A stretch of DNA of 21,471 nucleotides from Nostoc sp. (GCF_036916575.1 NZ_JBALGC010000105.1:1-21471); one strand, 5' to 3'; positions 1-19,558 are shown, counted from the first letter of the stretch. Notes: a model not told the origin generated them from the letters alone. Numbers and translations: made by a program.

Positions 1-1400
1 CACCAAGCGTTTGTCTCCTGGTTGATACTCTTGAGCAATGACCGCACTTTCCTGAACTTGTGGGTGTTGAGTGAGTACAGCTTCGATTTCTCCTAGTTCA
101 ATGCGGAAACCTCGCACTTTGACTTGATGGTCGATGCGACCTAGAAACTCGACATTGCCGTCCGGTAAGTACCGAGCTAAGTCACCTGTTTTGTAAAGGC
201 GTGTTCCTGGTTCTTGAGAAAAAGGATCTGGAATAAAGACCTTAGCAGTTTGTTTTGGATTGTACAAATAGCCGCGACCATTACCGATACCTCCAACATA
301 TAATTCACCAACAACTCCAATTGGTATGGGTTGTAGCTGGGTATCAAGAACATATAAGCGCATATTTTGTACCGGACGACCAATCGGTGTAATAAACACA
401 TGTGCTGTAGGAGGTTGGTAGATCAGGTAGTGCGCTACATCGTCGGAACACTCAGTCGGACCATAGGCATTTAAGATGGGGATAGCTGGGTAATAGTCTA
501 ACCACCGACGAGATAAATTAGGCGGTAACACCTCACCAGTAAGTATCAATAAACGTAACTTGGGTAAGTTAGGTTGCTCTGGACGACTCACCTCTATCTC
601 TTCGAGCATCATCCGCAACAGTGATGGTACAATCTCAAGAAAGGATATTTCTTGGCACCTTATTTCTTTAAGAAGTTGTGCAGGGTCGCGAGCGACTTCA
701 TCGTTGAAAATGCAAACGCGGGCACCAATAAGTAGTGCAGCTAAAAATTGCCACACTGAGATATCAAAACTTTGATTGGCATTTTGCGCTACAGTATCGG
801 CATCTATTAACTTTAAATCCAAAATTTTTGCGTACAGATGATTTAACATCCCCCTATGTTCAATAGCCACCCCTTTTGGCATACCTGTCGAGCCAGAAGT
901 GTAGATTACATAAGCAAGATTTCTTGGGGTAACGGATACAGAAAGGTTTTCCTCAGACCGCTCTTGCTGCAATAACTCTTCGATGAGCAAGATCCGCACT
1001 TGTTGTTCTGAAGGTATTTTTTCCAGTGCTTGTGATAAAATAGGCGCAAACTTGCTGGTAGCCAGAACCAAGGAGGTTTTGCTTTGTGATAACACTTGGC
1101 GCAAACGTGGGGCTGAATGATATAAATCAAGTGGGAGGTAGGCACCACCAGCTTTAAATACTGCCATCATTGCGGTTAAGAAGTCGATGCTACGCTCGGC
1201 AAGCAAAGCGACAATAGTATCTGGTTTAACTCCTTGCTCCACCAAAAGCTTAGCTAGACGGTTGGCTCGACGGTTTAACTTCTCGTAAGTTAACTGTTGC
1301 TTTTCAAATGCTACCGCTACTGCATCGGGTGTTCTTTCTACCTGCTTCTCAAATAACTGATGGATACATTTGTTTTCGGGGTATATATTAATAGTGTCAT
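1..1400 (-). other. Domain: NRPS adenylation domain, truncated after core A8 by the window edge
   Basis: Motifs LTYEKLNRRANRLA, LAYVIYTSGSTGMPKG (874-921), FDISVWQ, NAYGPTE, GELYVGG, YKTGDLARYLPDGNVEFLGRIDHQVKVRGFRIELGEIE (last part 82-141). A9, A10 and the PCP are not in the window. Confidence 0.9.
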
Positions 1401-4400
1401 TCCATTGCACCAACAACTGATGGCGTTCTGCTTCACTTAATAGTGGTAATTCACTTACTTCTTGTGAAGGATTTTCTACAATCGCTTTACATAAGTTCTG
1501 GAAATGCCTTAACCAGCGGTTAATTGTTGCAGCATCAAACAAGTCTGTATTGTATATAAAATCTAAAACAAAATTATCATTTATTTGGGTAATATTTAAA
1601 TTAATATCGTAATCAGTAAAGCTAATTGGTTGAACGAACAAGTCTGTTTCCAATTCAAACATTTTTGGTATGGCTACAGGTCGCTCCATGTTAAATGTTG
1701 TCGATACAATAGAAGAAAGACTTATTTTGTTATTAGTTTTCAAATTTTCATATAAACTAATAAACGGATAATCTTGGTGTTCGTAGGCGTCTAATAATAC
1801 GTCTCTGATTTTTTTTACATGTTTCAAAAATGCTAAGTTACTGACTACTGGATTTCGTAAAAGTAGTAAATTAGAACAATATCCTATCAGCCCTTCACTT
1901 CCCAGAATTGAGCGTCCGCCATAAAGAATACCTACCACAATTTCATCTTGATTTGTTAACCGGGAAAGTAAAACAGTATACACTGTCAAAAAAGTCATAA
2001 ACAGAGTACAACCGTTTTGTGTACTTAGCTGCTTCAGTTGACGACAAAGATCGATATCAAGCTGTATCGTTTGCCTATTACCTCGATAAGTCTTTATCGG
2101 CGGGCGAAAACGATCAGTTGGTAGGTCTAAAACAGGAATTGATCCCGTAAATTTTGCTAACCAGTAAGATTCATGAACAGCCATTTTTTCTGTTTGAAGT
2201 TGCTGTTCACACCAACTGACGTATTCCCTGAATTGTTGAGGTGATGAGATCTGACAAACAACGCCCTGACACTCTGTTGAATACAATTGAGCTATTTCTT
2301 GTACAATAATGCTCATAGACCAGCCATCAGTAATAATATGATGCGCTATCAGAACTAGCAAATGTAGTTCCTCTTCTAGTTTAAGAATCTGAGCGCGAAA
2401 CATAGGTGGTGTAGCAAGGTCAAAAGGTTTTAAGTTTTCTTGTTCAAACCACTGTGTTACTTGAAAATCGCGATCACTTGCATCAGATAAATCAATTAGC
2501 GAAATATCTATCTTTAGAGATGGCAAAATTTGTTGAAAATTACCCTGACTGTCGATTTTTGTCCGTAAAGCCTCATGGCGGTCTACAACTTGCTGTACGG
2601 CTCGACTCATCGCTCCCAGATTTAATAAACCTTTTAACTGCAGACTGAGCGAGATTTTGTAAGCGAGCGTGCCATCGTCTCCCATCTGATCTAAAATCCA
2701 GAGTTGCTTTTGAGCCTTAGTTAAAGGAACTATGCCCTCAACTCCAGAATTTATTTCTTTAGTAGAAGATGTTGTCAAAGATGAAAGTATCTTTTTTTGG
2801 AGACTATTTTCTACTTTGTTATAGTGGTCTTGTAGATAATTGAAATTTTGGAAATTCTCCAAAACTTTACTATTTAATTGTACACTTTTAGGTGTTTTAT
2901 CAAGATTTAATACCTCATCTTTAGTCTGTACTAAATTACTAGATTGTTCTTGTACCTTTATTAAAGGGATTTGCCACTGTTTCTTATAGTGTTTTTTCAG
3001 TAAATTTAAATGAGATAATCCTTCTAATACAGAATCACTATCTACTCCAAAATCAACAAAGCAGGCAATTTCATCAACCCCAATTTCTATTAACTTGTTA
3101 ATGATAGGTAAACACAAAGAAGGAGTGCCGATAAGAGCACTTGTCTGTACATAACGCTCATAAGCTTTTGAAAGGATGTAATTAGTATCTTCCTGAGAAA
3201 TTTTTTCTACGTCTATTTTCAGCCCTTGGCTCTTCACTAAATTTTGAAAAATTCCAATAGTTGACTGTAGATAATTGTAAAAAGGTTGACGAGCTTTTTC
3301 GCGAACAGTATCAACGTTTTCTCCAACAAATGTGTGCAGTAAAACTGTTACATTACCTAATTCTGGATCATAACCGTGCTTAGACAGAGACTCGCGATAA
3401 AGAGATATGTTATGAGCCAAATCTTCAATAGTCTGCCCCATTAAGTTAGTTAAAACACCTGCGCCTATTTCACCTGCTTTTATATAGGTGTCTGGGTTAT
3501 TAACGATTGTGATCCAAATTGGCACATCAGGCTGCATTGGCATAGGAAAAAGCTTAACATTTATGTCGCTTCCTGCGCCGTCTCGAACTTGAAGTGATTC
3601 ACCCCGCCACAGTTTTTGCACTGTTTCAATTTCTTGAAACATCAGTTCGCGATGTTTACCGTAAGACTCTGGTGCAAACACAAAATCATTTGCATGCCAA
3701 CCGGAGGCAAAGGAAATTCCTACTCTGCCTTTTGATAAATTGTCAACTATTGACCACTCTTCAGCAACTCGGATCGGGTGATGTATTGGCAAGACAACGC
3801 TACCAGCACGTATTTGGATATGCTTCGTCTCTCTAGCAAGTGCTGCACCAATTACTGATGGATTTGGTGAAAATCCTCCAAAGGGATGAAAGTGACGTTC
3901 AGGTATCCACAAAGCTGTAAAACCCTGCTCATCAGCAAATTTTGCCCCTTCAAATAGGAGGTTATACTTGTTTGGATCAAATTCAGATTCATAGTTGCCG
4001 AAATAATACAGGCTAAAGGAAATTCCTTTGCTTGTATCTCGTTTTGCTCTTCTTACCGTATTTTGACTGAGATTGATATTGGGTTTATGAGTTCTTCTTC
4101 CCCAAAACCCTGGTTCTACTTGAGTAGCATTTGTAATTTCTGTGATACTCGTAGAAGGCATTGTAGTCATTTGTTGTAAAGTAGCAGCTTCAGGAGTAAA
4201 ACTTTCAGCTAAGAATGAATTCGTCGAATTGCTAGAAGATTCATTCAAGCTGAGTGAACTTTTGGGTAGAAAATCTCCTGCTTGCATTTGGGATATGCTA
4301 TCTTTTACAGCTTGAATTATATACTGAATATCGGCATCTGTATGCGCTGTGGACAAAAAACAATTTCGCCCTTCCCAAATATAAATTCCCTTTTCGAGCA

Positions 4401-7400
4401 AATGATAAAATAATAAGTCCATATTGCTCGAAAAAGCAAAACGGAACAACGAGCCAAAATAAACGATACGAATGGGTAAATTCTCGCCTTCAAAATAAGC
4501 ATTCAGCATGGCGGCTAACTTAGCTGTGCGCTGATTCAAATTCTCTTGCAAAGTAGATCCGCGCATCTTTATTTCTCTGAGGACAGCACTCGCAGTAGCT
4601 AGAGCTAGAGGATGTTTGCAGAAAGTGCCAGCAAAAAATGTCGTCTCTGCTTGAGGATAGGATGCATCTTCATAGTTCCACATGCCACCGTCAAGACTAT
4701 TCATATAAATAGCTTTACCAGCAACGACACCAATAGGCATTCCCCCCCCGACAATCTTGCCGTAGGTAGCAATATCTGCATCAATACCAAACCATGCTTG
4801 CGCTCCACCAGGATGAATGCGAAAACCAGTAATCATTTCATCAAATATCAATGCAATTCCCTTTTCTCGCGTTAATTGTCTCAGTTGGTGGAGAAATTCC
4901 CTCGGTTGGAAATCGGGTCGGCGGCTTTGTACTGGTTCGACTAAAACTGCTGCCAGTTCATGTGCGTGAGTTTCGAGTATCTCTAAGGAATGAGGATTGC
5001 CATAATCAAGTACTAAAACATCTACGACTGTATTCGATGTAATCCCTGGAGCAATTGGTACTACATTTAAATTATCATTTAAACTCTCATTGCTCGTTTG
5101 AGCCATTGCCAAAGTTCCATCAAAGTGACCGTGATAAGAACCAGTGAACAAAGCAATCTTTTGACGACCTGTAACTGTACGTGCCAAGCGCAGTGCTGTC
5201 ATCACCGCTTCGGTTCCAGAATTACAAAAAGTAATTCGTTCCATTCCCGTAAGTTGGCAAATTAACTGCGCTACCTCGAAAGCCAGACGGGTTTGGGGAC
5301 CAATTTGTATTCCTCGATCAACCTGCTTCTTTAAAGCGGTGATCGCAAAATCTGGCTGGTGTCCAAACAGATTTGCCCCAAATCCCATTGTCAAATCTAA
5401 GTACTCATTTCCATCGACATCCCAAATTCTCGAACCCTGAGAACGTTCTCCCACAATCGGGTATAGCATTTCTTTGGTAGAGAAACGAAAACCCGCCGAA
5501 GCCCTATTGTCTGCCAAAATTGGTCGATAGGTTTGCGTTAGTTGTTTTGAGGTTTGAGTGCGCTGAGTATAACGAATGATAAGATCTTCTAAGTGACGCT
5601 GTTGTTGCGGGTTGAGTCCTTGATGGCGAATTTCGCTAACTTTCCAAGGGGGCAAGGGCGAAAATGTTTCTTGAGCCATTGGTTTGGGTGGTGCTGGCTT
5701 GAGTGTCTCAACTGCGGGTTTTGAGTGTCCGTTGTGGGTAGAAAAATTGGGAACTGTGGATAAACCATTACCCCGCATCACTTCTAATTGCTGAGACATA
5801 AGCTGAAGCTGCTGCTGAATAATTGCTTCCATCGCTTTATTGGATCCCATCTGTTGCTCTACTGTCGCTCGCTCGCTTGGTTGTGATATTTGTGATCGCG
5901 ACAGTACCTCAGTTTCTGTCTCATTTAAAACAAAATCTTCTGGGACGATCTGCTCGTTTAGATAATTTGCTAAGGCATCAAGGGTCGTCAACTCCTCAAA
6001 TAATTGGCGAATAGTAATTTTTATTCCATAGGTTGCTTCAATTCTGTTAACTGCATCAATAAGAATTATAGAATCAGCGCCCATTTCTAAGAAAGGGACG
6101 TTTATATTCATCTCAGATGGTTCTATTTTAAATAAATTTACAACCAGAGTTCGCAAGGTTGTGAGAATTGTTTCTTTTTGGTTAGTTTTGGTAAATGTAG
6201 TCAAAGCAGGATTTAAACCGTTAGTAGCGATCGCGTTCGTCTTCATAGGTTTCTGGTTTGATATAGTGCTTTGGTCTTGAATCCAGTAGCGTTTTCTTTG
6301 GAAAGAATAGGTGGGAAGCGAAAGTATGCGACGTGAATAATCTCGATCAAATCCCAGCCAGTCAATCTTTACTCCGCTTATGTATAATGCAGATAAACTT
6401 TCCAGCATCACTCGCCAATCCTCTTTCTGCGGTGCTAGAGAAGGTAGCCAAACTGCCCTTTCCTCTTGTTGACAGCGTTTACCTAAGCTCGACAGGATTG
6501 GTTTGGGACTAATTTCTAAAAATAGTTCGTATCCTTGTGTGAATAGAGTTTTTATCCCTGCCATAAATTGCACTGTTTGGCGAGTGTGTTGTCGCCAATA
6601 TTTGGCATCGGGGATAAACTCAGAGTACATCATTTGCCCCGTCAAATTGGATATTAGGGGAATACTAGGAGCGCGAAATTGGATTTGACTGGTTTGTAAC
6701 TCAAAGGCATTCAAAATATCATCTATTAAAGGAGAGTGAAAGGCATGAGAAACTTTTAAGCTTCGAGTTTCAATTCCTCGTGCTTCCAAGGCATCAGCGA
6801 TTGAGGCGATCGCTGGTATACGCCCAGATATCGTAATATTTTTGGGGGCGTTGATGGCGGCGATCGCTACTTCTGAGGTGTAAGGTTGAATGGCTGTTGC
6901 TACTTGTGCTTCATCAGCAAATACAACTAGCATCTTACCTTGAGGAGGCAGTGTCTGCATCAATTTTGCCCGTTCGGAAATCAGTTTGAGTCCGTCTTCC
7001 AAGCTGAATACTCCCGCTACACATGCAGCGACATATTCACCCACACTATGACCCATAACTACATCTGGAATTATCCCCCATGATTTCCATAACTCAAAAA
7101 GTGCGTATTCTAAAGCAAATAATGCTGGTTGAGTATAAATTGTTTCATTTAGTAAAGAATCACTTTCTGATTCGGGATATAAAATTGATAATAGCGGTTT
7201 TTCCAAATAAGAAGACAGAATTTCTTGGCAGTGGTTTAAACAGTTGCGGAAAGTAGGTTGAGTTTGGTAAAGTTGTCGTCCCATCCCTAGATACTGGGAA
7301 CCCTGACCACTAAACAAAAAGGCAATTTTAGGAGACTTTTGACCAAGTGAGCGATTACTTGATACCTCAGAATTCTCCTTGCCAAGAATAAAAGCATTCA

Positions 7401-10400
7401 ATGCCGTTTGCAATTGCTGTCGTGATTCAACGATCACACTCAATCGATGCTCAAAATGCATTCGTCCAGTATTGGCTGTGAAGCAAACATTTGCTAAAGA
7501 CTCTTGAAGATTTTGTTCTAGATGAGTTTGATATTTTTCTACTAACTCCTGCAAAGCCGATTCATTTTTTGCCGAGAGAGTCAATAAATGTTTGGGGCGT
7601 TCGCGTAGCGATTCCTGTAGAGAATCCCTTTCTGTAATAGAAAGGAAAGGATTGGAAATAGGTGCTTCTTGCAAAATTATATGAGCATTAGTGCCGCCAA
7701 AGCCGAATGAAGATACACCAGCAAGACGTTGCTCTTTATCATGTAACCACGGCTGAAATTCTGTAGCGATCGACAATGAAGTGCTTTCAAGAGAAATATG
7801 AGGATTTATCTGTTTTAAATGTAGATGAGGAAACTTCTCTTTATGAAGTAAAGATAGCACTACTTTAATTAAACCAGCAATACCGGCAGCAGCCTCTAAA
7901 TGACCTATATTGGTTTTAACGGAGCCAATCGTGCATAATTGTCGATGCGAACATTCCTGAGTAAACACTTCTTTAAGAGAATTCAGTTCTATGGTGTCTC
8001 CTAAAAAAGTGCCAGTACCATGAGTTTCTACATAACTGATTTGTGCTGATGTTACACCAGCATTGGCTAAAGCTTGACGAATGACCGCTTGTTGAGCAGC
8101 ACCGTTAGGAGCTGTAAGTCCATTACTGCGACCATCTTGATTGACTGCCGAACCTTTAATGATCGCCAGAATTTTATCTCCATCTCTAAGCGCGTCAGAC
8201 AGACGTTTGAGAACCACTACACCACAACCTTCTCCACGAACGTAACCATCCGCATTCGTATCGAAGGTTTTACAGCGACCGTCAGCAGCCATCATTCCTG
8301 CTTGATCGAAAGAGATAGTCAGTTGGGGAGTGAGAATGAGATTGACTCCTCCAGCTAATGCTAGCTCGCATTCTCCTTGGCGCAAGCTTTGAGAAGCCTG
8401 ATGAACTGCCACTAGAGATGAAGAGCAGGCTGTATCTACTGCCCAGCTTGGACCCCGCAAATCTAGAAGATAAGATAGGCGATTAGCGGCAATACTAAAA
8501 GCATTACCAGTTCCAAAATAGGCATCCAATCTAGTCTTCAAGTCGAACTGTAATTGAGAATAATCAAAGTTGCTGATGCCAAAGAAAACCCCAGTCTGAC
8601 TTCCTGCTAACTTATCTGGTGCCTTCCCAGCGTGTTCTAGAGCTTCCCAGCTTACTTCTAGTAGCAGACGCTGTTGGGGATCCATACTTTCTGCTTCACG
8701 CGGGGATATTCCAAAAAACTGCGGGTCGAACTGATCCACTTGCTCCAAAAAACCACCATAGCAAGCATAGTTGTCCCAACGCGATGCGGGTACCTCGGCG
8801 ATCGCATCGACTCCGTTGCGTAATAGCTGCCAGAAAGCATCTGGATTGTTGGCTTTTGGGAAACGACAACCCATTCCAACGATCGCGATCTCTTCAGTTT
8901 CTTTCCTGCTTTCAGTTTTAATTTGTTGGGGAGCAAAACCTTCAGAAGCAGAAGTTTCATCTGCTAGATGTCGAGCCAAGCCTTCAAGGGTAGGATAATC
9001 GTATAGTAAGGTGGGAGAAAATTCGCGTCCAAGCCATTCTTGTAGTTCGCCCGAAATTCTTACTGCTGCCAGAGAATTTAAACCGTATTGAGCTAGAGGT
9101 TGGCGAATATCTATCTCCACAGGTGATACTTGCAGATATTCGCCAATTTTTGCCAGTAACCAAGCTTCAATCGCCTCTACACTTTTAGATTTTGGTAGAT
9201 CGTTGAGTCCTGGTAGGCGATCATTTGTACTCTCTGAAGAGTTGGCTGACAAATTATCCGTTTGCAGTTTTTGCCACAGGGATTCTATTTCTGATTCCAG
9301 ATGCCGAAAATGGTTTTTGTATTGGGGATTTACACTCCAATCTGCCAATACATCCAAACTGCCAGCCAGAAAACCTTCTCGACAAGCCCTACGCCGCACT
9401 TTCCCAGAAGAAGTTTTTGGAAGCGTTCCAGTTTTGAGGAGCAAAATCGCGTAAGCTTGTAAATCGTGCTCTTCTGCCACTGCTTTGCGAATTGCCGCGA
9501 TCACATCATTGCCATTTAACTTCCGCAGGTGAGTTCGTTCTACCTCTTGGACGATCACCAATTGTTCTACACCAGCAATTTCGACAGAAAAAACCGCTCC
9601 ACAACTAGGACGCAGTGCTGGGTGGCTTTGTTCTACTGTTAGTTCGATATCTTGAGGATAATGATTGCGACCCAAGATAATAATCAAATCTTTCAACCGA
9701 CCCGTAACAAATAGCTCGCCATCCTGCAAAAACCCTAAATCTCCGGTGCGTAGATACGGTTCTTCATCCCTGTCAAGATAAGCATGAAAAGTATCTTTTG
9801 TCTGCGATGGTTGATTCCAGTAGCCACTAGCCACACTCGGACTAAATACCCAAATCTCTCCCACTTGTCCATCTGTAAGCCGAGTTAAAGATTCGGGTTC
9901 AACAATTGCGATTTTTGTATCCGACCAACTCCGACCACAGCCGACAATTTTTTGAATATTCGAGCGAGCGTCAGTCGCAACTATTGCTTTGTTTTTTTCG
10001 AGAGCAGTTCCCTCAATTTGGCAAATTACTGGAGGTTGCGTTTTCAAGCCTCCAGAGATAAATAAAGTTGTCTCAGCCATCCCATAGCAGGGATAAAATG
10101 CTTCGTGGCGAAAGCCGCAATCGGCGAAAGTGCTAGTAAAACGCTCTAGTGTGTCGGCTCGGATTGGTTCGGCTCCGCTAAAAGCCACTTCCCAACTACT
10201 TAGATCGAGTTGATCGCGCTGTTCGGAAGTAATTTGGCGAACGCAAAGCTCGTAAGCAGAATTAGGACCTCCACTAGTAGTTGCCTTATAGCGTGAAATT
10301 GCCTGTAGCCAGCGAATTGGTTTTTGCAGAAATGCTACAGGCGACATGAGAAAACACGGTATTCCCAAATATAGGGGCTGTAACACATTGCCAACTAGTC

Positions 10401-11049
10401 CCATATCGTGGAATAAAGGCAACCAACCGGTAAAAATAGTATTGTGCGTATGTCCAAATGCTTTTTGAATTATTTGCTCGTTGTGCAAGAGATTGCCGTG
10501 AGTGACCATTACTCCTTTCGGCATTCCGGTAGAACCTGAAGTGTACTGGAGAAAAGCGAGAGTGTCGCTGCTCACAGTTGGATCTTGCCAGTCTGATGCA
10601 CAGTCGCTGCTAATCTTATCGATAGCTAGCCAGTGTATAGCAGATAATTTTAGATTCTGAACCAATTGACTTTCCATGCTAGTCAATTCAGATGTTGTAG
10701 TAAGCGCCATCGATGCTTGGGCATCCGATACAATCGCTTGCAGTCTGGATATTTTTTGATTGCGTCGAGGCGGATAGGCGGGAACGGCGACACACCCAGC
10801 GTATAAACAGCCAAAGAAAGCAGTAATAAAATCTAGACCTGGTGGAAACAGCAACAAGACTCGTGAACCAGGAACTTTAACTCGCTCTTGAAGTCGAACG
10901 GCGATCACTCGTGCTTTTCGCTCCAATTCTTGATAAGTAAGACTTACGCTTTCTGTTTCTCCGTTTATTAAAAAGGTATAGGCAATTTGTTCCGACTGAT
11001 GTATTGCTCGGTATTGCAAAATATCTAAAAAGGTTGAAAAATTATCCAT
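1..11049 (-). CDS. Hybrid PKS/NRPS lipopeptide-initiation megasynthase, 3' end beyond window (FAAL-ACP-KS-AT-ACP-aminotransferase-luciferase-like monooxygenase-C-A...)
   Basis: The minus-strand frame is open for all 3,683 codons from the ATG (complement of 11047-11049) to position 1. It is absent from the ORF track only because no stop lies in the window. Hand translation starts MDNFSTFLDILQYRAIHQSEQIAYTFL and ends ...QEYQPGDKRLV at position 1. Catalytic motifs of nine domains occur in colinear order (see domain entries). Every ORF-track ORF inside 1-11049 is in another frame or antisense. Confidence 0.93.
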   Translation of the reverse strand, partial: MDNFSTFLDILQYRAIHQSEQIAYTFLINGETESVSLTYQELERKARVIAVRLQERVKVPGSRVLLLFPPGLDFITAFFGCLYAGCVAVPAYPPRRNQKISRLQAIVSDAQASMALTTTSELTSMESQLVQNLKLSAIHWLAIDKISSDCASDWQDPTVSSDTLAFLQYTSGSTGMPKGVMVTHGNLLHNEQIIQKAFGHTHNTIFTGWLPLFHDMGLVGNVLQPLYLGIPCFLMSPVAFLQKPIRWLQAISRYKATTSGGPNSAYELCVRQITSEQRDQLDLSSWEVAFSGAEPIRADTLERFTSTFADCGFRHEAFYPCYGMAETTLFISGGLKTQPPVICQIEGTALEKNKAIVATDARSNIQKIVGCGRSWSDTKIAIVEPESLTRLTDGQVGEIWVFSPSVASGYWNQPSQTKDTFHAYLDRDEEPYLRTGDLGFLQDGELFVTGRLKDLIIILGRNHYPQDIELTVEQSHPALRPSCGAVFSVEIAGVEQLVIVQEVERTHLRKLNGNDVIAAIRKAVAEEHDLQAYAILLLKTGTLPKTSSGKVRRRACREGFLAGSLDVLADWSVNPQYKNHFRHLESEIESLWQKLQTDNLSANSSESTNDRLPGLNDLPKSKSVEAIEAWLLAKIGEYLQVSPVEIDIRQPLAQYGLNSLAAVRISGELQEWLGREFSPTLLYDYPTLEGLARHLADETSASEGFAPQQIKTESRKETEEIAIVGMGCRFPKANNPDAFWQLLRNGVDAIAEVPASRWDNYACYGGFLEQVDQFDPQFFGISPREAESMDPQQRLLLEVSWEALEHAGKAPDKLAGSQTGVFFGISNFDYSQLQFDLKTRLDAYFGTGNAFSIAANRLSYLLDLRGPSWAVDTACSSSLVAVHQASQSLRQGECELALAGGVNLILTPQLTISFDQAGMMAADGRCKTFDTNADGYVRGEGCGVVVLKRLSDALRDGDKILAIIKGSAVNQDGRSNGLTAPNGAAQQAVIRQALANAGVTSAQISYVETHGTGTFLGDTIELNSLKEVFTQECSHRQLCTIGSVKTNIGHLEAAAGIAGLIKVVLSLLHKEKFPHLHLKQINPHISLESTSLSIATEFQPWLHDKEQRLAGVSSFGFGGTNAHIILQEAPISNPFLSITERDSLQESLRERPKHLLTLSAKNESALQELVEKYQTHLEQNLQESLANVCFTANTGRMHFEHRLSVIVESRQQLQTALNAFILGKENSEVSSNRSLGQKSPKIAFLFSGQGSQYLGMGRQLYQTQPTFRNCLNHCQEILSSYLEKPLLSILYPESESDSLLNETIYTQPALFALEYALFELWKSWGIIPDVVMGHSVGEYVAACVAGVFSLEDGLKLISERAKLMQTLPPQGKMLVVFADEAQVATAIQPYTSEVAIAAINAPKNITISGRIPAIASIADALEARGIETRSLKVSHAFHSPLIDDILNAFELQTSQIQFRAPSIPLISNLTGQMMYSEFIPDAKYWRQHTRQTVQFMAGIKTLFTQGYELFLEISPKPILSSLGKRCQQEERAVWLPSLAPQKEDWRVMLESLSALYISGVKIDWLGFDRDYSRRILSLPTYSFQRKRYWIQDQSTISNQKPMKTNAIATNGLNPALTTFTKTNQKETILTTLRTLVVNLFKIEPSEMNINVPFLEMGADSIILIDAVNRIEATYGIKITIRQLFEELTTLDALANYLNEQIVPEDFVLNETETEVLSRSQISQPSERATVEQQMGSNKAMEAIIQQQLQLMSQQLEVMRGNGLSTVPNFSTHNGHSKPAVETLKPAPPKPMAQETFSPLPPWKVSEIRHQGLNPQQQRHLEDLIIRYTQRTQTSKQLTQTYRPILADNRASAGFRFSTKEMLYPIVGERSQGSRIWDVDGNEYLDLTMGFGANLFGHQPDFAITALKKQVDRGIQIGPQTRLAFEVAQLICQLTGMERITFCNSGTEAVMTALRLARTVTGRQKIALFTGSYHGHFDGTLAMAQTSNESLNDNLNVVPIAPGITSNTVVDVLVLDYGNPHSLEILETHAHELAAVLVEPVQSRRPDFQPREFLHQLRQLTREKGIALIFDEMITGFRIHPGGAQAWFGIDADIATYGKIVGGGMPIGVVAGKAIYMNSLDGGMWNYEDASYPQAETTFFAGTFCKHPLALATASAVLREIKMRGSTLQENLNQRTAKLAAMLNAYFEGENLPIRIVYFGSLFRFAFSSNMDLLFYHLLEKGIYIWEGRNCFLSTAHTDADIQYIIQAVKDSISQMQAGDFLPKSSLSLNESSSNSTNSFLAESFTPEAATLQQMTTMPSTSITEITNATQVEPGFWGRRTHKPNINLSQNTVRRAKRDTSKGISFSLYYFGNYESEFDPNKYNLLFEGAKFADEQGFTALWIPERHFHPFGGFSPNPSVIGAALARETKHIQIRAGSVVLPIHHPIRVAEEWSIVDNLSKGRVGISFASGWHANDFVFAPESYGKHRELMFQEIETVQKLWRGESLQVRDGAGSDINVKLFPMPMQPDVPIWITIVNNPDTYIKAGEIGAGVLTNLMGQTIEDLAHNISLYRESLSKHGYDPELGNVTVLLHTFVGENVDTVREKARQPFYNYLQSTIGIFQNLVKSQGLKIDVEKISQEDTNYILSKAYERYVQTSALIGTPSLCLPIINKLIEIGVDEIACFVDFGVDSDSVLEGLSHLNLLKKHYKKQWQIPLIKVQEQSSNLVQTKDEVLNLDKTPKSVQLNSKVLENFQNFNYLQDHYNKVENSLQKKILSSLTTSSTKEINSGVEGIVPLTKAQKQLWILDQMGDDGTLAYKISLSLQLKGLLNLGAMSRAVQQVVDRHEALRTKIDSQGNFQQILPSLKIDISLIDLSDASDRDFQVTQWFEQENLKPFDLATPPMFRAQILKLEEELHLLVLIAHHIITDGWSMSIIVQEIAQLYSTECQGVVCQISSPQQFREYVSWCEQQLQTEKMAVHESYWLAKFTGSIPVLDLPTDRFRPPIKTYRGNRQTIQLDIDLCRQLKQLSTQNGCTLFMTFLTVYTVLLSRLTNQDEIVVGILYGGRSILGSEGLIGYCSNLLLLRNPVVSNLAFLKHVKKIRDVLLDAYEHQDYPFISLYENLKTNNKISLSSIVSTTFNMERPVAIPKMFELETDLFVQPISFTDYDINLNITQINDNFVLDFIYNTDLFDAATINRWLRHFQNLCKAIVENPSQEVSELPLLSEAERHQLLVQWNDTINIYPENKCIHQLFEKQVERTPDAVAVAFEKQQLTYEKLNRRANRLAKLLVEQGVKPDTIVALLAERSIDFLTAMMAVFKAGGAYLPLDLYHSAPRLRQVLSQSKTSLVLATSKFAPILSQALEKIPSEQQVRILLIEELLQQERSEENLSVSVTPRNLAYVIYTSGSTGMPKGVAIEHRGMLNHLYAKILDLKLIDADTVAQNANQSFDISVWQFLAALLIGARVCIFNDEVARDPAQLLKEIRCQEISFLEIVPSLLRMMLEEIEVSRPEQPNLPKLRLLILTGEVLPPNLSRRWLDYYPAIPILNAYGPTECSDDVAHYLIYQPPTAHVFITPIGRPVQNMRLYVLDTQLQPIPIGVVGELYVGGIGNGRGYLYNPKQTAKVFIPDPFSQEPGTRLYKTGDLARYLPDGNVEFLGRIDHQVKVRGFRIELGEIEAVLTQHPQVQESAVIAQEYQPGDKRLV
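1440..2740 (-). other. Domain: NRPS condensation domain (boundaries approximate)
   Basis: VPLTKAQKQLW near the start. His motif AHHIITDGWS with HHxxxDG at 2323-2343. Confidence 0.88.
2990..4030 (-). other. Domain: luciferase-like (flavin-dependent) monooxygenase embedded in the assembly line (boundaries approximate)
   Basis: Motifs ISFSLYYFGNYESEFDPNKYNLL, GFTALWIPERHFHPFGGFSPNPSV, GRVGISFASGWHANDF and LIGTPSLCLPIINKLIEIGVDEIACFVDFG. This pattern fits the natural-product luciferase-like monooxygenase domain class, as in the MOX domain of MtaG/MelG. Confidence 0.8.
4290..5630 (-). other. Domain: PLP-dependent class-III aminotransferase (AMT, glutamate-1-semialdehyde aminomutase-like; boundaries approximate)
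   Basis: Motifs LNPQQQRHLEDLIIRYTQRTQTSKQ, LADNRASAGFRF, FCNSGTEAVMTALRLAR (about 5181-5231) and ATYGKIVGGGMPIG (candidate PLP Lys codon 4756-4758). The position after the KS-AT-ACP unit matches the AMT of MycA/ItuA-type synthetases. Confidence 0.85.
5960..6180 (-). other. Domain: acyl carrier protein 2 (boundaries approximate)
   Basis: Motif VPFLEMGADSIIL, with the Ser codon at 6070-6072. Confidence 0.85.
6400..7340 (-). other. Domain: acyltransferase, malonyl-type (boundaries approximate)
   Basis: Motifs IAFLFSGQGSQY, MGHSVGEYVAAC (Ser codon 7045-7047) and VSHAFHSPL. The HAFH motif is the established marker of malonyl-CoA specificity. Confidence 0.88.
7660..8900 (-). other. Domain: ketosynthase (boundaries approximate)
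   Basis: Motifs EEIAIVGMGCRFP, VDTACSSSLVAVH (active-site Cys codon 8425-8427), YVETHGTGT, IGHLEAAAG and GFGGTNAHIILQEA. Confidence 0.93.
8990..9200 (-). other. Domain: acyl carrier protein 1 (boundaries approximate)
   Basis: Motif LAQYGLNSLAAV, with the phosphopantetheine-attachment Ser codon at 9073-9075. Confidence 0.85.
9340..11049 (-). other. Domain: fatty acyl-AMP ligase (FAAL)-type adenylating loading domain (boundaries approximate)
   Basis: The N-terminus MDNFSTFLDILQYRAIHQSEQIAYTF is typical of FAALs. The adenylate-forming core LQYTSGSTGMPKGVMVTH lies at about 10503-10556. The C-terminal motif TSSGKVRRRACRE lies at about 9381-9420. A carrier domain follows directly. Confidence 0.85.
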
Positions 11050-11249: not shown

Positions 11250-12230
11250 TTTAAACCAACCAAAAATGTTACTTAAATTGATAGTTTATAAAGCATTTGT
11301 AATCGCTTTACCACGTATCAGGATAAGTTGTTGTTTCTTTTGAACGTAAAAATTCTTGAACTTGTGACCCAAAATTCTCGCGCTTACAAAAAGTCTGGGG
11401 AATATTAATAAATAAATTAAATTATCCCAAATATATTCAATCGTTTCTCTAATTCCTGACACCTTATGAGATCTAAAATTATCGATGACTACACACGCTC
11501 CTTCCCATAAATTCGGAACTAATACTTGATAAATATAAATAGAAAATGCATTTTTATCATTTCCACCCTTAAAACTCATCGCCCCAACAATCCCATGTAA
11601 AGTGATCGCCCCAATGATGGTTACATTTTTACCATGTTTGTTGGGACGAGAGCCGTGCGTTCTTTTTCTTCTTAGTGCTTTAGCATAAAGTCTAGTCATA
11701 GCTATATTTACCCCCGAATCATCAACAAAAACTAAATTATTCAGGTCAAATGTACGGATAATTTCCCAAAACTCTTGTCTCAATTTTTTAACTGTATCCG
11801 TGTCTTGCTCCGCTGCGTGTCAAGTTTTTTTTCGGGTCAATTTGAGCTTTTATAACGTTTTACTCATTCCTGAGCTACTAATTTTTCTCTGAGGAAAGTA
11901 ACTCCATTTTTACACATAATTCTTTTAAGGTTGCATCGTTATTCTCTTCTATCAATTTTTGTAAAATTGGATAATGTTCTTCTTTTATTTGGGGTGGGTT
12001 ACTACTCTTATGTGGTAATGGTTCTATACTTTCTATTTCTAAATAGCGACCTAGTAAAGTTTGTATAAAACTGAGACTTACATGAAAGCGTTTTGCCAGC
12101 TTTCGCTTACGAGCCTTCTCAATTCCGAAAGGCATCAACAATTTTTTGACGCAGAGCTTGGTCGTCAGCCTTCATAAAAATCTGATTAATATACTCTGGT
12201 CAAATTTTAACCAGAGCGTGTTGGTTTCAA
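11250..12230 (-). mobile_element. IS630/Tc1-mariner-family insertion sequence relic (ends approximate)
   Basis: Contains the decayed transposase listed in the next entry. Candidate imperfect terminal inverted repeats are TTTAAACCAACC (11250-11261) and TGTTGGTTTCAA (12219-12230), matching 10/12 as reverse complements. The boundaries are weakly supported. Confidence 0.55.
11286..12175 (-). pseudogene. IS630-family DDE transposase, multiply frameshifted and stop-interrupted
   Basis: ATG at the complement of 12173-12175 gives MKADDQALRQKIVDAFRN. The frame then shifts to the HTH part ...KLAKRFHVSLSFIQTLLGRYLEIESIEPLPHKSSNPP...NNDATLKELC (ORF 11878-12141). The linker has in-frame stops (SKTL*KLKLTRKKT*HAAEQ). 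The DDE core follows: LVFVDDSGVN...GKNVTIIGAITL...VVIDNFRSHK (ORF 11286-11783). The C-terminus is scrambled. Confidence 0.85.
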
Positions 12231-12977: not shown

Positions 12978-13122
12978 AGAGGATGTTTTAAAAGTCCTGG
13001 AAGGTATAGTTTTGCCGTTCAGACTTAGGTTAACTCTGACGAAAAATCAAGGTTTCAGTCATGTACTGGGATGCTTGGCAGTGCTCATTATGAGAGCAAA
13101 AGACTCTTTTAAAACATCCTCT
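12978..13122. repeat. MITE-like element, copy A (145 bp)
   Basis: Terminal inverted repeats AGAGGATGTTTTAAAAG (12978-12994) and CTTTTAAAACATCCTCT (13106-13122), 17/17 as reverse complements. No ORF inside. Same termini, length and orientation as copy B. Confidence 0.8.
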
Positions 13123-13573: not shown

Positions 13574-13615
13574 CAACTTTGGTTAAACAAGTAGAAAAGG
13601 ACTTTGGAGACTGCC

Positions 13616-13942
13616 ATGAACGAGCTAGTACAAAGATTATCACAAGGGGATCATCCTGTTGAGGCAAGCTTAAAACCTGAAAAAACGGTTACAGCCTTCA
13701 AAGAGAGTATTGACCGTGGATATGTTCACATTAAATTTACAAATACTAAGGGAGGCACTGATCTCGGTGTCAGACTTGATCAAGAAGCTTCCAATTTGAA
13801 CGAGGCCGACTTCGACCATCAAGCGGGAAAGGTTCACCTGGTTGGTAACTTGACGCTTAATTACGAGAAAGTTCGATGTATCGCAGATATTGACCTAGAA
13901 ACACTTGAAGGCAAAGGACATCTTGAGTCAGTAGAAGAGTGA
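13616..13942 (+). CDS. Hypothetical protein (108 aa from ATG 13616; track uses TTG 13604), function unknown
   Basis: GGAG at 13606-13609 lies 6 nt before ATG 13616. Sequence is acidic and looks beta-strand-rich (…GYVHIKFTNTKGGTDLGVRLDQE…GKVHLVGNLTLNYEKVRCIADIDLETLEGKGHLE). I recognise no family. Confidence 0.6.
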   Translation: MNELVQRLSQGDHPVEASLKPEKTVTAFKESIDRGYVHIKFTNTKGGTDLGVRLDQEASNLNEADFDHQAGKVHLVGNLTLNYEKVRCIADIDLETLEGKGHLESVEE

Positions 13943-13993: not shown

Positions 13994-14178
13994 CTTAGCT
14001 CGACTTTATCCATTTTTTGACAACGCTCAAGCTGACGCCCAAACCTTTGCGGTCCGGTAGTTTTACTTTTTCGATTTCACCGATAATCAGTGACATGGAA
14101 AAAGTTTTTGCCAAAAAGCCAGGGTTTTTGCCATATCAAGAGAACCAAGTTCTTAATTTTGGATAAAGTCGAGCTTAG
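13994..14178. repeat. Inverted-repeat (MITE-like) element C, about 185 bp, abutting MITE copy B
   Basis: AGCTCGACTTTATCC (13997-14011) and GGATAAAGTCGAGCT (14161-14175) are perfect 15-bp inverted repeats, extendable to about 18 bp with one mismatch. No ORF inside. The right end touches the first base of MITE B. Confidence 0.6.
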
Positions 14179-14321
14179 AGGATGTTTGAAAAGTCCTCCA
14201 GCGTGTGTTTCACTACCCTAGCTACCGAGAAGCTGCTACGAAAAAATCGGAGTTTTAGGATTTGAGACCCCACCTCTGAGTCGCACTTGAGGCTCAAGGC
14301 GACCCTTTTCAAACATTCTCT
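14177..14321. repeat. MITE-like element, copy B (145 bp)
   Basis: Termini AGAGGATGTTTGAAAAG (14177-14193) and CTTTTCAAACATTCTCT (14305-14321), 16/17 as reverse complements. Same family as copy A. Both carry an internal ACGAAAAA(A)TC block at the same offset, and the interiors are otherwise diverged. Confidence 0.8.
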
Positions 14322-14367: not shown

Positions 14368-14598
14368 ATGACTAGAGACGACCAAGAGGAAACAACGATC
14401 TATAAAGTTGTCGTGAATCACGAAGAGCAGTATTCCATCTGGCCATCTGACCGAGATAACCCTCTCGGCTGGCAGGATGTAGGCAAAACTGGTCTTAAGT
14501 CAGAATGTCTGGAATACATTAAGGAAGTGTGGACTGACATGAGACCACTCAGTCTCCGGAAGAAGATGGAAGAAGCAGCAGGCCAGACAACCACCTAG
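14368..14598 (+). CDS. MbtH-like protein (NRPS adenylation-domain chaperone), 76 aa
   Basis: Diagnostic pattern [52 protein letters not shown], with the three conserved Trp residues and the WTDMRP box. AAGGGA lies 7 nt upstream of the ATG. Confidence 0.92.
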
Positions 14599-15649: not shown

Positions 15650-16666
15650 ATGCAAAGTCTTATAGAAGAATCTTTAGAGTCAAAGTATATTCCGTCAATA
15701 AATGAGGGAATATTAACGACAATCGGTAATACGCCATTGCTGAAATTAGAACGCATTCTCAAAAATACTCAATTTCAACTTTTTGCAAAGATGGAAATGT
15801 TTAATCCCGGAGGTAGCATCAAAGACCGTACAGCCTTTAACATAATCAAAAGTGCTTGTGAGAAAAATCATATTCGTCCTGATACTACAGTTATCGAATC
15901 TAGCTCAGGAAATTTAGGTATCGGGCTTGCACAAGTATGTGCTTTTCTGGGTTTATATTTTATATGTGTAGTCGATCCTAAAACAACCAAACAAAATATT
16001 AAAATTATGAAAGCGTATGGGGCAGAAATTGATATTGTGAGAGAACCAGATCCAATCACAGGTGATTTTTTATTCGCACGCATTAACCGAGTGAAATCAT
16101 TGCTCAGTTCTATTTCCAATAGTTTTTGGTGTAACCAGTATGCGAACTTGGATAATCCACGCGTTCATCATCAAACAATGCACGAGATTGTAACAGCCTT
16201 TAATGGACAACTGGACTACTTATTCTGCGCTACTAGTACTTGTGGTACACTCCGTGGGTGTTCTGAATATGTAAGAAATAACAATCTTAAAACAAAAATT
16301 ATTGCTGTTGATGCTGTGGGAAGTGTCATTTTTGGTGATCAACGAAGAAAACGGCTCATACCTGGGCATGGTGCGGGGCGAGTCCCAGAGTTGTTTCAGC
16401 CCGGACTAGAGGATGCATATGTGCATATATCTGATTTAGACTGTGTTGTAGGCTGTCATCGTTTACTCCGTCACGAGGCAATATTAGCTGGAGGCTCATC
16501 AGGGGGAGTCATAGCGGCAATTGAAAAAAAGAGAGAGGAGATACCTAATAGCGCAACTTGCGTTGCCATTCTTTGCGATCGCGGTGAGCACTACCTTGAC
16601 ACAATTTATTCAGATAGTTGGATCGAAGAAAACTTTGGTAATATTTTTTATCTTTGGGATAATTAA
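15650..16666 (+). CDS. sbnA: SbnA-type PLP-dependent N-(2-amino-2-carboxyethyl)-L-glutamate synthase (first step of L-2,3-diaminopropionate synthesis)
   Basis: 338 aa. AGGAG at 15638-15642 lies 7 nt before the ATG. Blocks are colinear with S. aureus SbnA as I recall it: IGNTPLLKL, FAKMEMFNPGGSIKDR (PLP Lys), VIESSSGNLGIGLA, CVVDPKTT, WCNQYAN, IIAVDAVGSVIFGD, IPGHGAGRVPEL, LAGGSSGGVIAAIE, LCDRGEHYLDTIYSDSWIEE. Confidence 0.9.
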   Translation: MQSLIEESLESKYIPSINEGILTTIGNTPLLKLERILKNTQFQLFAKMEMFNPGGSIKDRTAFNIIKSACEKNHIRPDTTVIESSSGNLGIGLAQVCAFLGLYFICVVDPKTTKQNIKIMKAYGAEIDIVREPDPITGDFLFARINRVKSLLSSISNSFWCNQYANLDNPRVHHQTMHEIVTAFNGQLDYLFCATSTCGTLRGCSEYVRNNNLKTKIIAVDAVGSVIFGDQRRKRLIPGHGAGRVPELFQPGLEDAYVHISDLDCVVGCHRLLRHEAILAGGSSGGVIAAIEKKREEIPNSATCVAILCDRGEHYLDTIYSDSWIEENFGNIFYLWDN

Positions 16667-16691: not shown

Positions 16692-17726
16692 ATGACTAAC
16701 AGTGACATAATCCTCTTAAACGGTGATGAGATTACAGAGCTTTTCAAAAACCGCGAACAGGAAATAATGCAAACTGTAAAATTAGCTTATCAAATGCATA
16801 GTCGAGGATATACAACGTTACCTCATTCTAGTTTTTTGCGTTTCCCAAATAATGAAAAAGATAGAATTATTGCTTTACCAGCTTACTTGGGTGGCGAGTT
16901 TGATACAGCAGGCATGAAGTGGATTGCTTCTTTTCCAGGCAACTTAGCCTTGGGCATGGAGCGAGCATCAGCTGTTTTACTACTAAATTCGACACAAACT
17001 GGTCATCTACAAGCGATTATGGAAAGCTCTGTAATTAGCGCTAAACGCACTGCTGCTAGCGCTGCACTGGCTGCTCATTATTTGGGAGGAGAGCAATTAT
17101 TAGCCACAGTGGGTATAATTGGCTGTGGCTTAATTAATTTTGAAACCGTTCGCTTTCTCTTAGCCGCCCGCCCTGAAATAACAAATTTGTTCATTTATGA
17201 TTTAAGCTTGGAAAGAGCAGAAAAATTCAAAATTAAGTGCCAGCAATTATCTGAGCAGGTGGAAATTACAATACTTGAAAGCCTTAAGGCCATTTTTAAA
17301 AATGTTTCTGTAATTTCCTTTGCGACAACTGTAATTAAGCCACACATATTCGATATTTTGGAGTGGCATAACGATAATGGTATCATTTTGCACATTTCTT
17401 TACGAGATTTATCACCCGAAATAATGGTATTGGCTGATAACATCGTTGATGACATAGACCATGTCTGCCGCGCTCAAACATCCATCCACCTTACCGAACA
17501 ACAAATAGGAAACAGAGATTTTATTAGATGTACCATTGGTGAGATTCTCAATGGCATTGCCCCACCACGGCAAAAAAATAAAACTGCTATATTTAGCCCT
17601 TTTGGGCTTGGTATACTTGATCTTGCTTTAGGGCAGTTAGCCCATACATTAGCTCTTGAGCAAAACAAAGGAACTATGATCAAATCACTATTACCAGTCC
17701 CTTGGTTACAACAAGAAGAAAAGTAA
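16692..17726 (+). CDS. sbnB: SbnB-type NAD-dependent dehydrogenase of the ornithine cyclodeaminase/mu-crystallin family (second step of L-2,3-diaminopropionate synthesis)
   Basis: 344 aa from ATG 16692, with AGGGA at 16677-16681. The track start TTG 16521 would overlap sbnA by 146 nt. Blocks resemble SbnA's partner SbnB: DRIIALPAYLGGEFDTAGMKWIASFPGN, GMERASAVLLLN, ESSVISAKRTAASAALAA, VGIIGCGLINFETV, ISLRDL, VDDIDHVC, IFSPFGLGILDLAL. It lies 25 nt downstream of sbnA. Confidence 0.88.
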   Translation: MTNSDIILLNGDEITELFKNREQEIMQTVKLAYQMHSRGYTTLPHSSFLRFPNNEKDRIIALPAYLGGEFDTAGMKWIASFPGNLALGMERASAVLLLNSTQTGHLQAIMESSVISAKRTAASAALAAHYLGGEQLLATVGIIGCGLINFETVRFLLAARPEITNLFIYDLSLERAEKFKIKCQQLSEQVEITILESLKAIFKNVSVISFATTVIKPHIFDILEWHNDNGIILHISLRDLSPEIMVLADNIVDDIDHVCRAQTSIHLTEQQIGNRDFIRCTIGEILNGIAPPRQKNKTAIFSPFGLGILDLALGQLAHTLALEQNKGTMIKSLLPVPWLQQEEK

Positions 17727-17892
17727 TGGTACTTCACTAAAGACTGTACGTTCGCTCATTTTTGAAGGACAAGGGGAATTAATGCCTAACTGTGTAAGGT
17801 TTCAAGGTGATTGTGGAGATCCTAAAACCATTACCGTGTGATACTTAGCAGACGAATGAAAAAGAAAAAGAAATAACCAGAGAAAGACCAAT

Positions 17893-17902
17893 AATTATAA
17901 CC
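17893..17902. repeat. Target-site duplication, left copy (AATTATAACC)
   Basis: Perfect 10-bp direct repeat of 19531-19540, immediately outside IR-L of the IS4-family element. Confidence 0.85.
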
Positions 17903-19530: not shown

Positions 19531-19540
19531 AATTATAACC
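19531..19540. repeat. Target-site duplication, right copy (AATTATAACC)
   Basis: Perfect 10-bp direct repeat of 17893-17902, immediately outside IR-R. Confidence 0.85.
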
Positions 19541-19558
19541 AAAGGATATTCTCGAATT

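Follow-up and report, generated by a model that had tools for sequence, protein, structure and literature searches.

A fused FAAL-ACP-KS-AT-ACP-AMT-Ox-C-A megasynthase beside diaminopropionate genes on a Nostoc contig, predicted to make a 3-amino-2-hydroxy-acyl lipopeptide starter

We analyzed a stretch of DNA of 21,471 bp (the window), the complete contig NZ_JBALGC010000105.1 from a metagenome-assembled genome (MAG) of Nostoc sp., and in particular the megasynthase encoded on its minus strand. That strand is stop-free from 11088 to 1, a run of 3,696 codons. The first ATG of the megasynthase lies at 11049 (−), and the 3,683 codons that begin there are cut by the contig end at base 1. An earlier note on this DNA had described an open frame of 3,683 codons that leaves the left edge and is hidden from the track of open reading frames (ORFs). 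The frame proved to be as described, with no stop codon inside it. It is also absent from the ORF list, but is hidden only in the sense that ORFs running off an end of the contig are skipped in that list. A stop-free frame of 11 kb at approximately 41% GC, with domain E-values of 1e-30 to 1e-155, cannot be of chance origin. The other genes of the window, among them homologues of the diaminopropionate genes sbnA and sbnB, are listed together with the domains of the megasynthase in Table 1.

Domains were called by Pfam and NCBIfam profile searches of the frame translation, with residues numbered from the ATG at 11049. Together the models gave the order fatty-acyl-AMP ligase (FAAL), acyl carrier protein (ACP), ketosynthase (KS), acyltransferase (AT), second ACP, aminotransferase (AMT), luciferase-like monooxygenase (LLM, here also called Ox), condensation domain (C) and adenylation domain (A). 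The FAAL region contains a Pfam AMP-binding domain and a DIP2-like C-terminal domain. Its closest solved relatives are all of the FAAL type (7R7E-G at 670 bits, 3KXW at 505 bits and FadD32 at approximately 350 bits), and its scores against McyG-type and amino-acid A domains were much lower. The KS carries the motifs DTACSS, HGTGT and GHLEAAAG, with Cys875, His1010 and His1050. As the earlier note had said, the AT contains GHSVGE (at residue 1333) and HAFH (at residue 1435), the markers of a malonyl-type AT. In the AMT, the lysine for pyridoxal phosphate (PLP) is Lys2098 in TYGKIVGGG, and the best solved relative is the AMT of MycA (PDB 6KFM/6KFR/6KFU), with 544 bits and 54% identity. The Ox domain also matches Pfam Bac_luciferase (134 bits), and its best solved relative is the Ox domain of PuwE (PDB 6KET), with 565 bits and 69% identity over 347 residues. 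The profile searches thus bear out the proposed presence, between ACP2 and C, of an aminotransferase followed by a luciferase-like monooxygenase of the natural-product type. The A domain matches TIGR01733 with 590 bits across profile positions 1–409 of 409. The catalytic motifs are complete across the megasynthase.

Table 1. Features of the 21,471-bp window. Residues are those of the megasynthase, and cut-offs are those of the models named.
Feature	Coordinates	Strand	Details
FAAL domain	9244..11037	−	residues 5–602; fatty-acyl-AMP ligase models (NCBIfam) 490–520 bits
ACP1	8965..9162	−	residues 630–695; Ser659 in GLNSL; PP-binding 59.7 bits
Ketosynthase	7816..8895	−	residues 719–1078; Pfam ketoacyl-synt 321.7 bits, Ketoacyl-synt_C 140.8 bits
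KS-AT linker	7381–7806	−	CurL-like and RhiE-like linker models (Pfam)
cis AT	6373..7320	−	residues 1244–1559; Pfam Acyl_transf_1 201.9 bits
ACP2	5959..6159	−	residues 1631–1697; Ser1660 in GADSI; PP-binding 53.3 bits
Class-III PLP aminotransferase (AMT)	4258..5616	−	residues ~1812–2264; Pfam Aminotran_3 184 bits; directly after carrier
Luciferase-like FMN monooxygenase (LLM/Ox)	2992..4032	−	residues 2340–2686; TIGR04020 seco_metab_LLM 530.6 bits, cut-off 244.45
Condensation domain	1411..2739	−	residues 2771–3213; Pfam Condensation 327.5 bits; HHIITDG at 2903
Adenylation domain, contig-cut	1..1353	−	residues 3233–3683; ends ~20 residues past core A8
IS630-family transposase fragments (two)	11286–12141	−	weak matches far below cut-off
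CBF_beta-matching protein	13604–13942	+	NCBI start ~13616, 108 aa; Pfam CBF_beta 40.9 bits, cut-off 25
MbtH-like protein	14368..14598	+	Pfam MbtH 82.2 bits; MEH1834788.1
sbnA homologue	15650..16666	+	PLP enzyme, L-Dap synthesis; TIGR03945 441.7 bits, cut-off 349.95; NCBI SbnA, MEH1834791.1
sbnB homologue	16692..17726	+	NAD-dependent dehydrogenase, L-Dap synthesis; TIGR03944 393.8 bits, cut-off 326.9
IS4-family element	17873–19560		between sbnB and second OCD gene; transposase ORF 18102–19496
Second ornithine-cyclodeaminase/mu-crystallin (OCD) gene	19493–20620	+	ornithine cyclodeaminase model 184.7 bits, below cut-off 350

No ketoreductase (KR), dehydratase (DH), enoylreductase (ER) or methyltransferase (MT) was found between AT and AMT; with a permissive threshold (E up to 10), PP-binding was the only Pfam match in residues 1560–1870. 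The gap of approximately 70 residues between AT and ACP2 leaves no room for a KR, DH or ER, and the lack of reductive domains there, claimed earlier from the sequence, holds. Permissive scanning also found no carrier domain in the linkers between AMT and Ox (2257–2344) and between Ox and C (2685–2770), so that KS, AMT, Ox and the C donor site must all share ACP2, the sole carrier available to them. On the basis of this organization, the protein encoded by the frame very probably opens a hybrid polyketide synthase (PKS)–nonribosomal peptide synthetase (NRPS) lipopeptide line, in which a MycA-style fused FAAL-ACP loader is followed by a PuwE-style module that would make a 3-amino-2-hydroxy-acyl starter.

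The chemistry of the individual steps is inferred from PuwE and MycA. FAAL would turn a free fatty acid (Cn) into acyl-AMP and load it on ACP1. The cis AT would put malonate on ACP2, and condensation by KS would then yield a 3-keto-C(n+2)-acyl-ACP2, the 3-keto group of which would persist because there is no KR, DH or ER. On the ACP2-bound chain, Ox (with FMNH2 and O2) would hydroxylate C-2 and AMT (with PLP) would turn the 3-keto into a 3-amino group. Hydroxylation of the beta-keto thioester would be the favoured first reaction, because its alpha carbon is more acidic and the reaction chemically easier. Our literature search found no biochemical studies of the PuwE Ox or MycA AMT structures. 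Finally, C would couple the 3-amino-2-hydroxy-acyl chain with the amino acid that A activates and that is bound to a peptidyl carrier protein (PCP), most likely L-2,3-diaminopropionate (L-Dap) from SbnA/SbnB. The flavin reductase for Ox would have to come from elsewhere. The similarity of Ox to PuwE and of AMT to MycA supports the prediction, made also in the earlier note, that a C(n+2) 3-amino-2-hydroxy fatty-acyl starter is made in cis on one chain.

To place the megasynthase among its relatives, the nine domains of the window were mapped onto loci (L-numbers), and their open frames, from one genome per species and from JGI metagenomes. A protein comparison (P-numbers) gave 5,197 matches at E ≤ 1e-30 among 1.84 billion 50%-identity representatives. 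Single chains of the form FAAL-ACP-KS-AT-ACP-AMT-C-A, without Ox, were common: L014, L018, L021 (Chitinophaga), L020, L030 (Pseudoalteromonas rubra), L050, L051 (Aquimarina), L055 and L086. The PuwE-like order KS-AT-ACP-AMT-LLM-C-A was found in L002, L003, L006, L082 and L109; the JGI metagenome scan contributed only the PuwE-like relatives L082 and L109, and no sequence extending the window contig. The chain that includes both FAAL and LLM is present in L001 (Burkholderiales MAG JAMFSK010000113) in a single ORF exceeding 3,341 codons. By domain BLAST of the best 135 of the 5,197 matches, the same compact chain occurs in at least eight (P0254, P0256, P0286, P0294 (Burkholderia), P0296, P0298, P0300 and P0329), and longer chain variants occur in P0309, P0314 and P0326. 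Named carriers of the fused chain are Burkholderia, Kitasatospora and Streptomyces. Pfam analysis of P0256 (3,732 aa) and P0296 (3,753 aa) gave FAAL-ACP-KS-AT-ACP-AMT-LLM-C-A-PCP, with both proteins ending after the PCP. A 90%-clustered protein database gave no match longer than approximately 1,550 residues and was hence uninformative on fused architectures. The all-in-one arrangement is recurrent and taxonomically broad. The novelty that the earlier note implied for it was overstated, since PuwE (2014) already unites KS-AT-ACP-AmT-Ox-C-A-PCP in one protein (PMC4219810) and the fused chain including FAAL recurs elsewhere.

The nearest cultured relative in the one-genome-per-species scan, in which the source genome was not included, is Calothrix sp. 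HK-06 (L005, MRCD01000078, 4425–17803). Its domains are 61–77% identical to those of the window from FAAL through AMT, 54% in C and 44% in A. The parts are distributed over three ORFs (FAAL-ACP-KS-AT, ACP-LLM and AMT-C-A...), with the monooxygenase before the aminotransferase, and the first A-domain code, DVENIGAIT, is not of the Dap type. The AMT-Ox unit was also seen in other settings. A very large set of proteins, including P0021–P0081 and the ACP-AMT-LLM-C-A entries of the domain BLAST, begins directly with ACP-AMT-LLM-C (approximately 1,500 aa or more), many of them from Methylacidiphilales/Verrucomicrobiota, Acidobacteriota and Streptomyces. Because this set spans those groups, the AMT-Ox unit is widespread far outside cyanobacteria, mostly in pathways without a known product. 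In L065, L072 (Myxococcus sp. CA023) and L080, an LLM that is 45–54% identical to the window Ox is inserted within an adenylation domain (A-LLM-A), the MtaG/MelG-like context.

The relatives bear as well on the integrity of the megasynthase. The chain is unlikely to be an assembly chimera, since each of its junctions recurs in independent genomes: the FAAL-ACP-KS-AT junctions in Calothrix (L005), ACP-AMT-LLM-C in L082 and PuwE, and the entire chain in L001, P0256 and P0296. The C-terminal part that is missing from the contig is probably only 150–190 residues or so (the A9–A10 cores and a PCP), because complete proteins of the same architecture stop after one PCP. Further NRPS genes would lie beyond the contig.

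The specificity code of the A domain is readable at nine positions and gives DIWEITADD. The mapping of code positions was checked on A domains of other loci, for which it gives textbook codes (DAWQFGLID, DLTKIGHVG, DFWNIGMVH, DVGEIGSID and others). A chitinopeptin module whose residue, (2S)-Dap, was verified by NMR and the Marfey method has a code printed as 'DiWeLtaDK', and the authors of that study treat every module with this code as an L-Dap module (PMC9248904, Table S7). All four chitinopeptin-family clusters contain sbnA/sbnB homologues, except that C. eiseniae has no sbnB in cis (PMC9248904). The window code is identical to the chitinopeptin L-Dap code at 8/9 readable positions and differs by one conservative change, Ile for Leu at position 299. 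A full-text literature search for the code string gave no match, the code being located solely in the supplement (PMC9248904). Among the sampled loci, the code DIWELTADD is carried by A domains of Chitinophaga L014, L018 and L021, of which L018 adjoins sbnA/sbnB; in P0262, P0285 and P0300, an AMT-LLM unit is followed by an identical or near-identical Dap-type code. The window A domain is 50–56% identical to those of P0262, P0285 and P0300, compared to approximately 30–40% for A domains with other codes.

The sbnA and sbnB homologues of the window form an adjacent pair, both above the equivalog cut-offs, 4.6 kb upstream of the megasynthase and on the opposite strand. The start of sbnB was taken from the gene call on the Logan contig; the mechanical ORF begins at 16521. 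The MbtH-like protein encoded nearby probably assists the A domain(s), and MbtH homologues are also found beside the related loci L001, L009, L019 and L024. Because DIWEITADD is near the chitinopeptin code and sbnA/sbnB are in the window, the first module probably activates L-Dap, in which case the chain leaving the megasynthase would be a 3-amino-2-hydroxy-acyl-Dap. The genes sbnA/sbnB have been reported from only a restricted set of cyanobacteria, and the proposed precursor of β-N-methylamino-L-alanine (BMAA) is 2,3-Dap (PMC9414260). No N-methyltransferase was found in the window.

The window contains the features of a PuwE-type unit, these being a non-reducing KS-AT module, an AMT after the carrier, an Ox between AMT and C, and C-A in the same chain. 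PuwE of the puwainaphycin/minutissamide pathway (Cylindrospermum alatosporum) likewise joins a non-reducing KS-AT-ACP to AmT, Ox, C and A on a single polypeptide, its predicted 3-amino-2-hydroxy acyl unit is handed to the first amino acid as would occur here, and both clusters are bidirectional. In the puw cluster, however, FAAL (PuwC or PuwI) and ACP (PuwD) are separate proteins, the reducing, methylating PKS PuwB acts ahead of PuwE, and Val is the first amino acid (PMC4219810). The window was rejected as a puw cluster proper because its FAAL-ACP is fused to KS, there is no PuwB-like gene among its genes, and its A code DIWEITADD is of the Dap type and not for Val. The MycA, ItuA and BamA proteins of the Bacillus iturin family share with the window an N-terminal FAAL-ACP fused to KS, then a carrier, AMT, C and A, giving a beta-amino starter, but have neither a cis AT nor an Ox, and their product has no 2-hydroxyl. 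In agreement with the contrast drawn in the earlier note, in which the AT of MycA/ItuA acts in trans, the Bacillus loci L028 and L031 contain a FAAL-KS-(ACP)-AMT-C fusion with no AT match. An iturin-family cluster proper was rejected because both a cis AT and an LLM are present in the window chain.

The mic cluster for microginin (Microcystis, Planktothrix) encodes its FAAL and ACP in different genes, and micD carries an annotated LLM domain (PMC9594780). The window was rejected as a mic cluster proper on account of its fused FAAL-ACP, the lack of a halogenase or methyltransferase among the window ORFs, and its Dap-type first A code. To our knowledge, microginins contain no Dap. The chitinopeptin-type loaders of Chitinophaga (L014, L018, L021; PMC9248904) resemble the window in their single chain of FAAL/CAL-ACP-KS-AT-ACP-AMT-C-A with a cis AT, in their sbnA/sbnB sub-clusters and in the L-Dap code DIWELTADD. 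They differ in having no Ox, which gives a 3-amino fatty acid without the 2-hydroxyl, and they are from Bacteroidota, with domains just 28–60% identical to those of the window. The fused proteins L001 and the P-series have the domain order of the window in one ORF, and their AMT-LLM unit starts at approximately residue 1800–1860 in P0254, P0256, P0286, P0294, P0296 and P0298, as in the window, and at approximately 1570–1680 in P0300 and P0329. They are, however, only 50–61% identical to the window over AMT-LLM, the named ones are from other phyla, and their A codes differ (P0256 has the Gly-type DILQLGLIW), a near-Dap code being found only in P0300 (DVWEITADD). The window system joins a fused loader of the MycA type, and a cis AT, to a unit of the PuwE type; each part, and the fused arrangement, is already known.

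The first residue could be a different small basic or polar one (Dab, Orn or Ser) in place of L-Dap, with sbnA/sbnB feeding a later module or another pathway. The substitution of Ile for Leu at position 299 is compatible with such a change in specificity, Lys517 lies beyond the readable sequence, the other modules lie off the contig, and the predictor used in the chitinopeptin study returned just 'hydrophilic' for the L-Dap code (PMC9248904). We nevertheless consider a residue other than L-Dap unlikely, given that eight of the nine readable positions are those of a code whose product was verified by NMR and Marfey analysis, that the window holds the Dap synthesis genes, and that the same or nearly the same code recurs after AMT-LLM in P0262, P0285 and P0300, together with the higher identity of the A domain to those of these three proteins. 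A different question is posed by Ox, which could be inactive, act on the first amino acid as a hydroxylase or catalyse an insertion of the Baeyer-Villiger type, so that the starter would be a plain 3-amino fatty acid (iturin-/laxaphycin-like) or a different oxidised form. TIGR04020 domains do occur in several contexts, and the identity of the A-inserted LLM domains of L065, L072 and L080 to the window Ox overlaps the range of 46–61% found for AMT-adjacent non-cyanobacterial LLM domains; the literature search, as mentioned, gave no biochemical study of the PuwE Ox. The close identity of the window Ox to that of PuwE, from a pathway whose product puwainaphycin does bear a 2-hydroxyl, and the lack of any visible truncation over the 347-residue alignment with the solved PuwE domain make a role other than C-2 hydroxylation highly improbable.

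The mobile elements of the window raise the further question of whether the locus survives only as a silent or decaying remnant, with a cluster broken by insertion sequences (IS) and an open gene that is unexpressed or lacks partner genes. Degenerate IS630 transposase fragments lie 240–1100 bp upstream of the megasynthase ATG and may have displaced its original promoter region, and promoter-like sites upstream of the megasynthase were no commoner than in shuffled sequence. An Rfam search gave no match in the window. The IS4 element has imperfect 48-nt terminal inverted repeats (17873–17920 and 19513–19560), with the right arm abutting the start of the downstream OCD gene, and the contig stops inside the megasynthase gene, as is frequent at repeats. 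However, short-read MAGs routinely break contigs within NRPS genes, and sbnA, sbnB and the MbtH gene are intact as well. Long-standing decay is disfavoured because the 3,683 codons contain no stop or frameshift and all catalytic motifs are intact; such a frame would not last long without selection. We thus regard a decayed or silent locus as distinctly unlikely, and prefer an intact megasynthase that begins a lipopeptide line.

Several observations weigh against our interpretation of the megasynthase as the source of a 3-amino-2-hydroxy-acyl-Dap chain. The megasynthase is truncated and the remainder of the cluster is outside the contig, and there is no flavin reductase for Ox among the window genes. 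With IS630 fragments upstream and IS4 in the accessory operon, expression of the megasynthase could be impaired. The Dap call rests on a code correlation with one difference (position 299) and with the tenth position (Lys517) off the contig, and the acidic pocket of the A domain could fit Dab or Orn too. In Calothrix sp. HK-06, the closest cultured relative, Ox precedes AMT and the chain is split; domain order is therefore evolutionarily free and gives no reaction order. The product, transcript and protein are all predicted here from sequence alone, and the Dap specificity and step order are likewise predictions, the chain length being left as C(n+2).

The window contains additional features. 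The second OCD gene, which is distinct from sbnB, might provide proline or pipecolate, as a cyclic imino acid, for a module further along the line. A small protein matches the Pfam model of eukaryotic core-binding factor beta (CBF_beta) and is named 'MbtH domain protein' at NCBI; it has 710 homologues, approximately 80–90% identical and approximately 108 aa in length, in Nostocales, Stigonematales-type genera and Pleurocapsales. Intergenic between the megasynthase and the MbtH gene, the 17-nt sequence AGAGGATGTTT(T/G)AAAAG is found four times, in both orientations (12978–12994, 13106–13122, 14177–14193 and 14305–14321), making two hairpin-capable pairs with copies 111 nt apart.

An AmT/Ox pair placed behind a non-reducing PKS module is the recognised route to 3-amino-2-hydroxy acyl units, and little is added here for enzymology, the fused FAAL form being present in many genomes. 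Metalloprotease inhibitors of the bestatin-like and microginin-like kinds have the 3-amino-2-hydroxy acyl group as their pharmacophore. We tentatively propose, at somewhat short of even odds, that the cluster makes an undescribed lipopeptide family in which a bestatin-/microginin-like zinc-protease warhead of this kind is joined directly to L-Dap. The junction of the 3-amino-2-hydroxy-acyl unit with Dap (Ahxa-Dap) may recur in other phyla, to judge from the codes of P0262, P0285 and P0300. If expressed, the megasynthase would be of practical value as a compact one-gene unit of approximately 11.5 kb for 3-amino-2-hydroxy fatty acyl building blocks, and it could also be used to decide the order of hydroxylation and transamination. 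If the proposal is true, the locus would be a concrete case of dedicated SbnA/SbnB supply of 2,3-Dap within a Nostoc secondary-metabolite cluster. The Dap link points to a Nostoc lipopeptide and gives 2,3-Dap synthesis in a Nostoc a defined genomic context, a matter of relevance to the dispute over where BMAA comes from.

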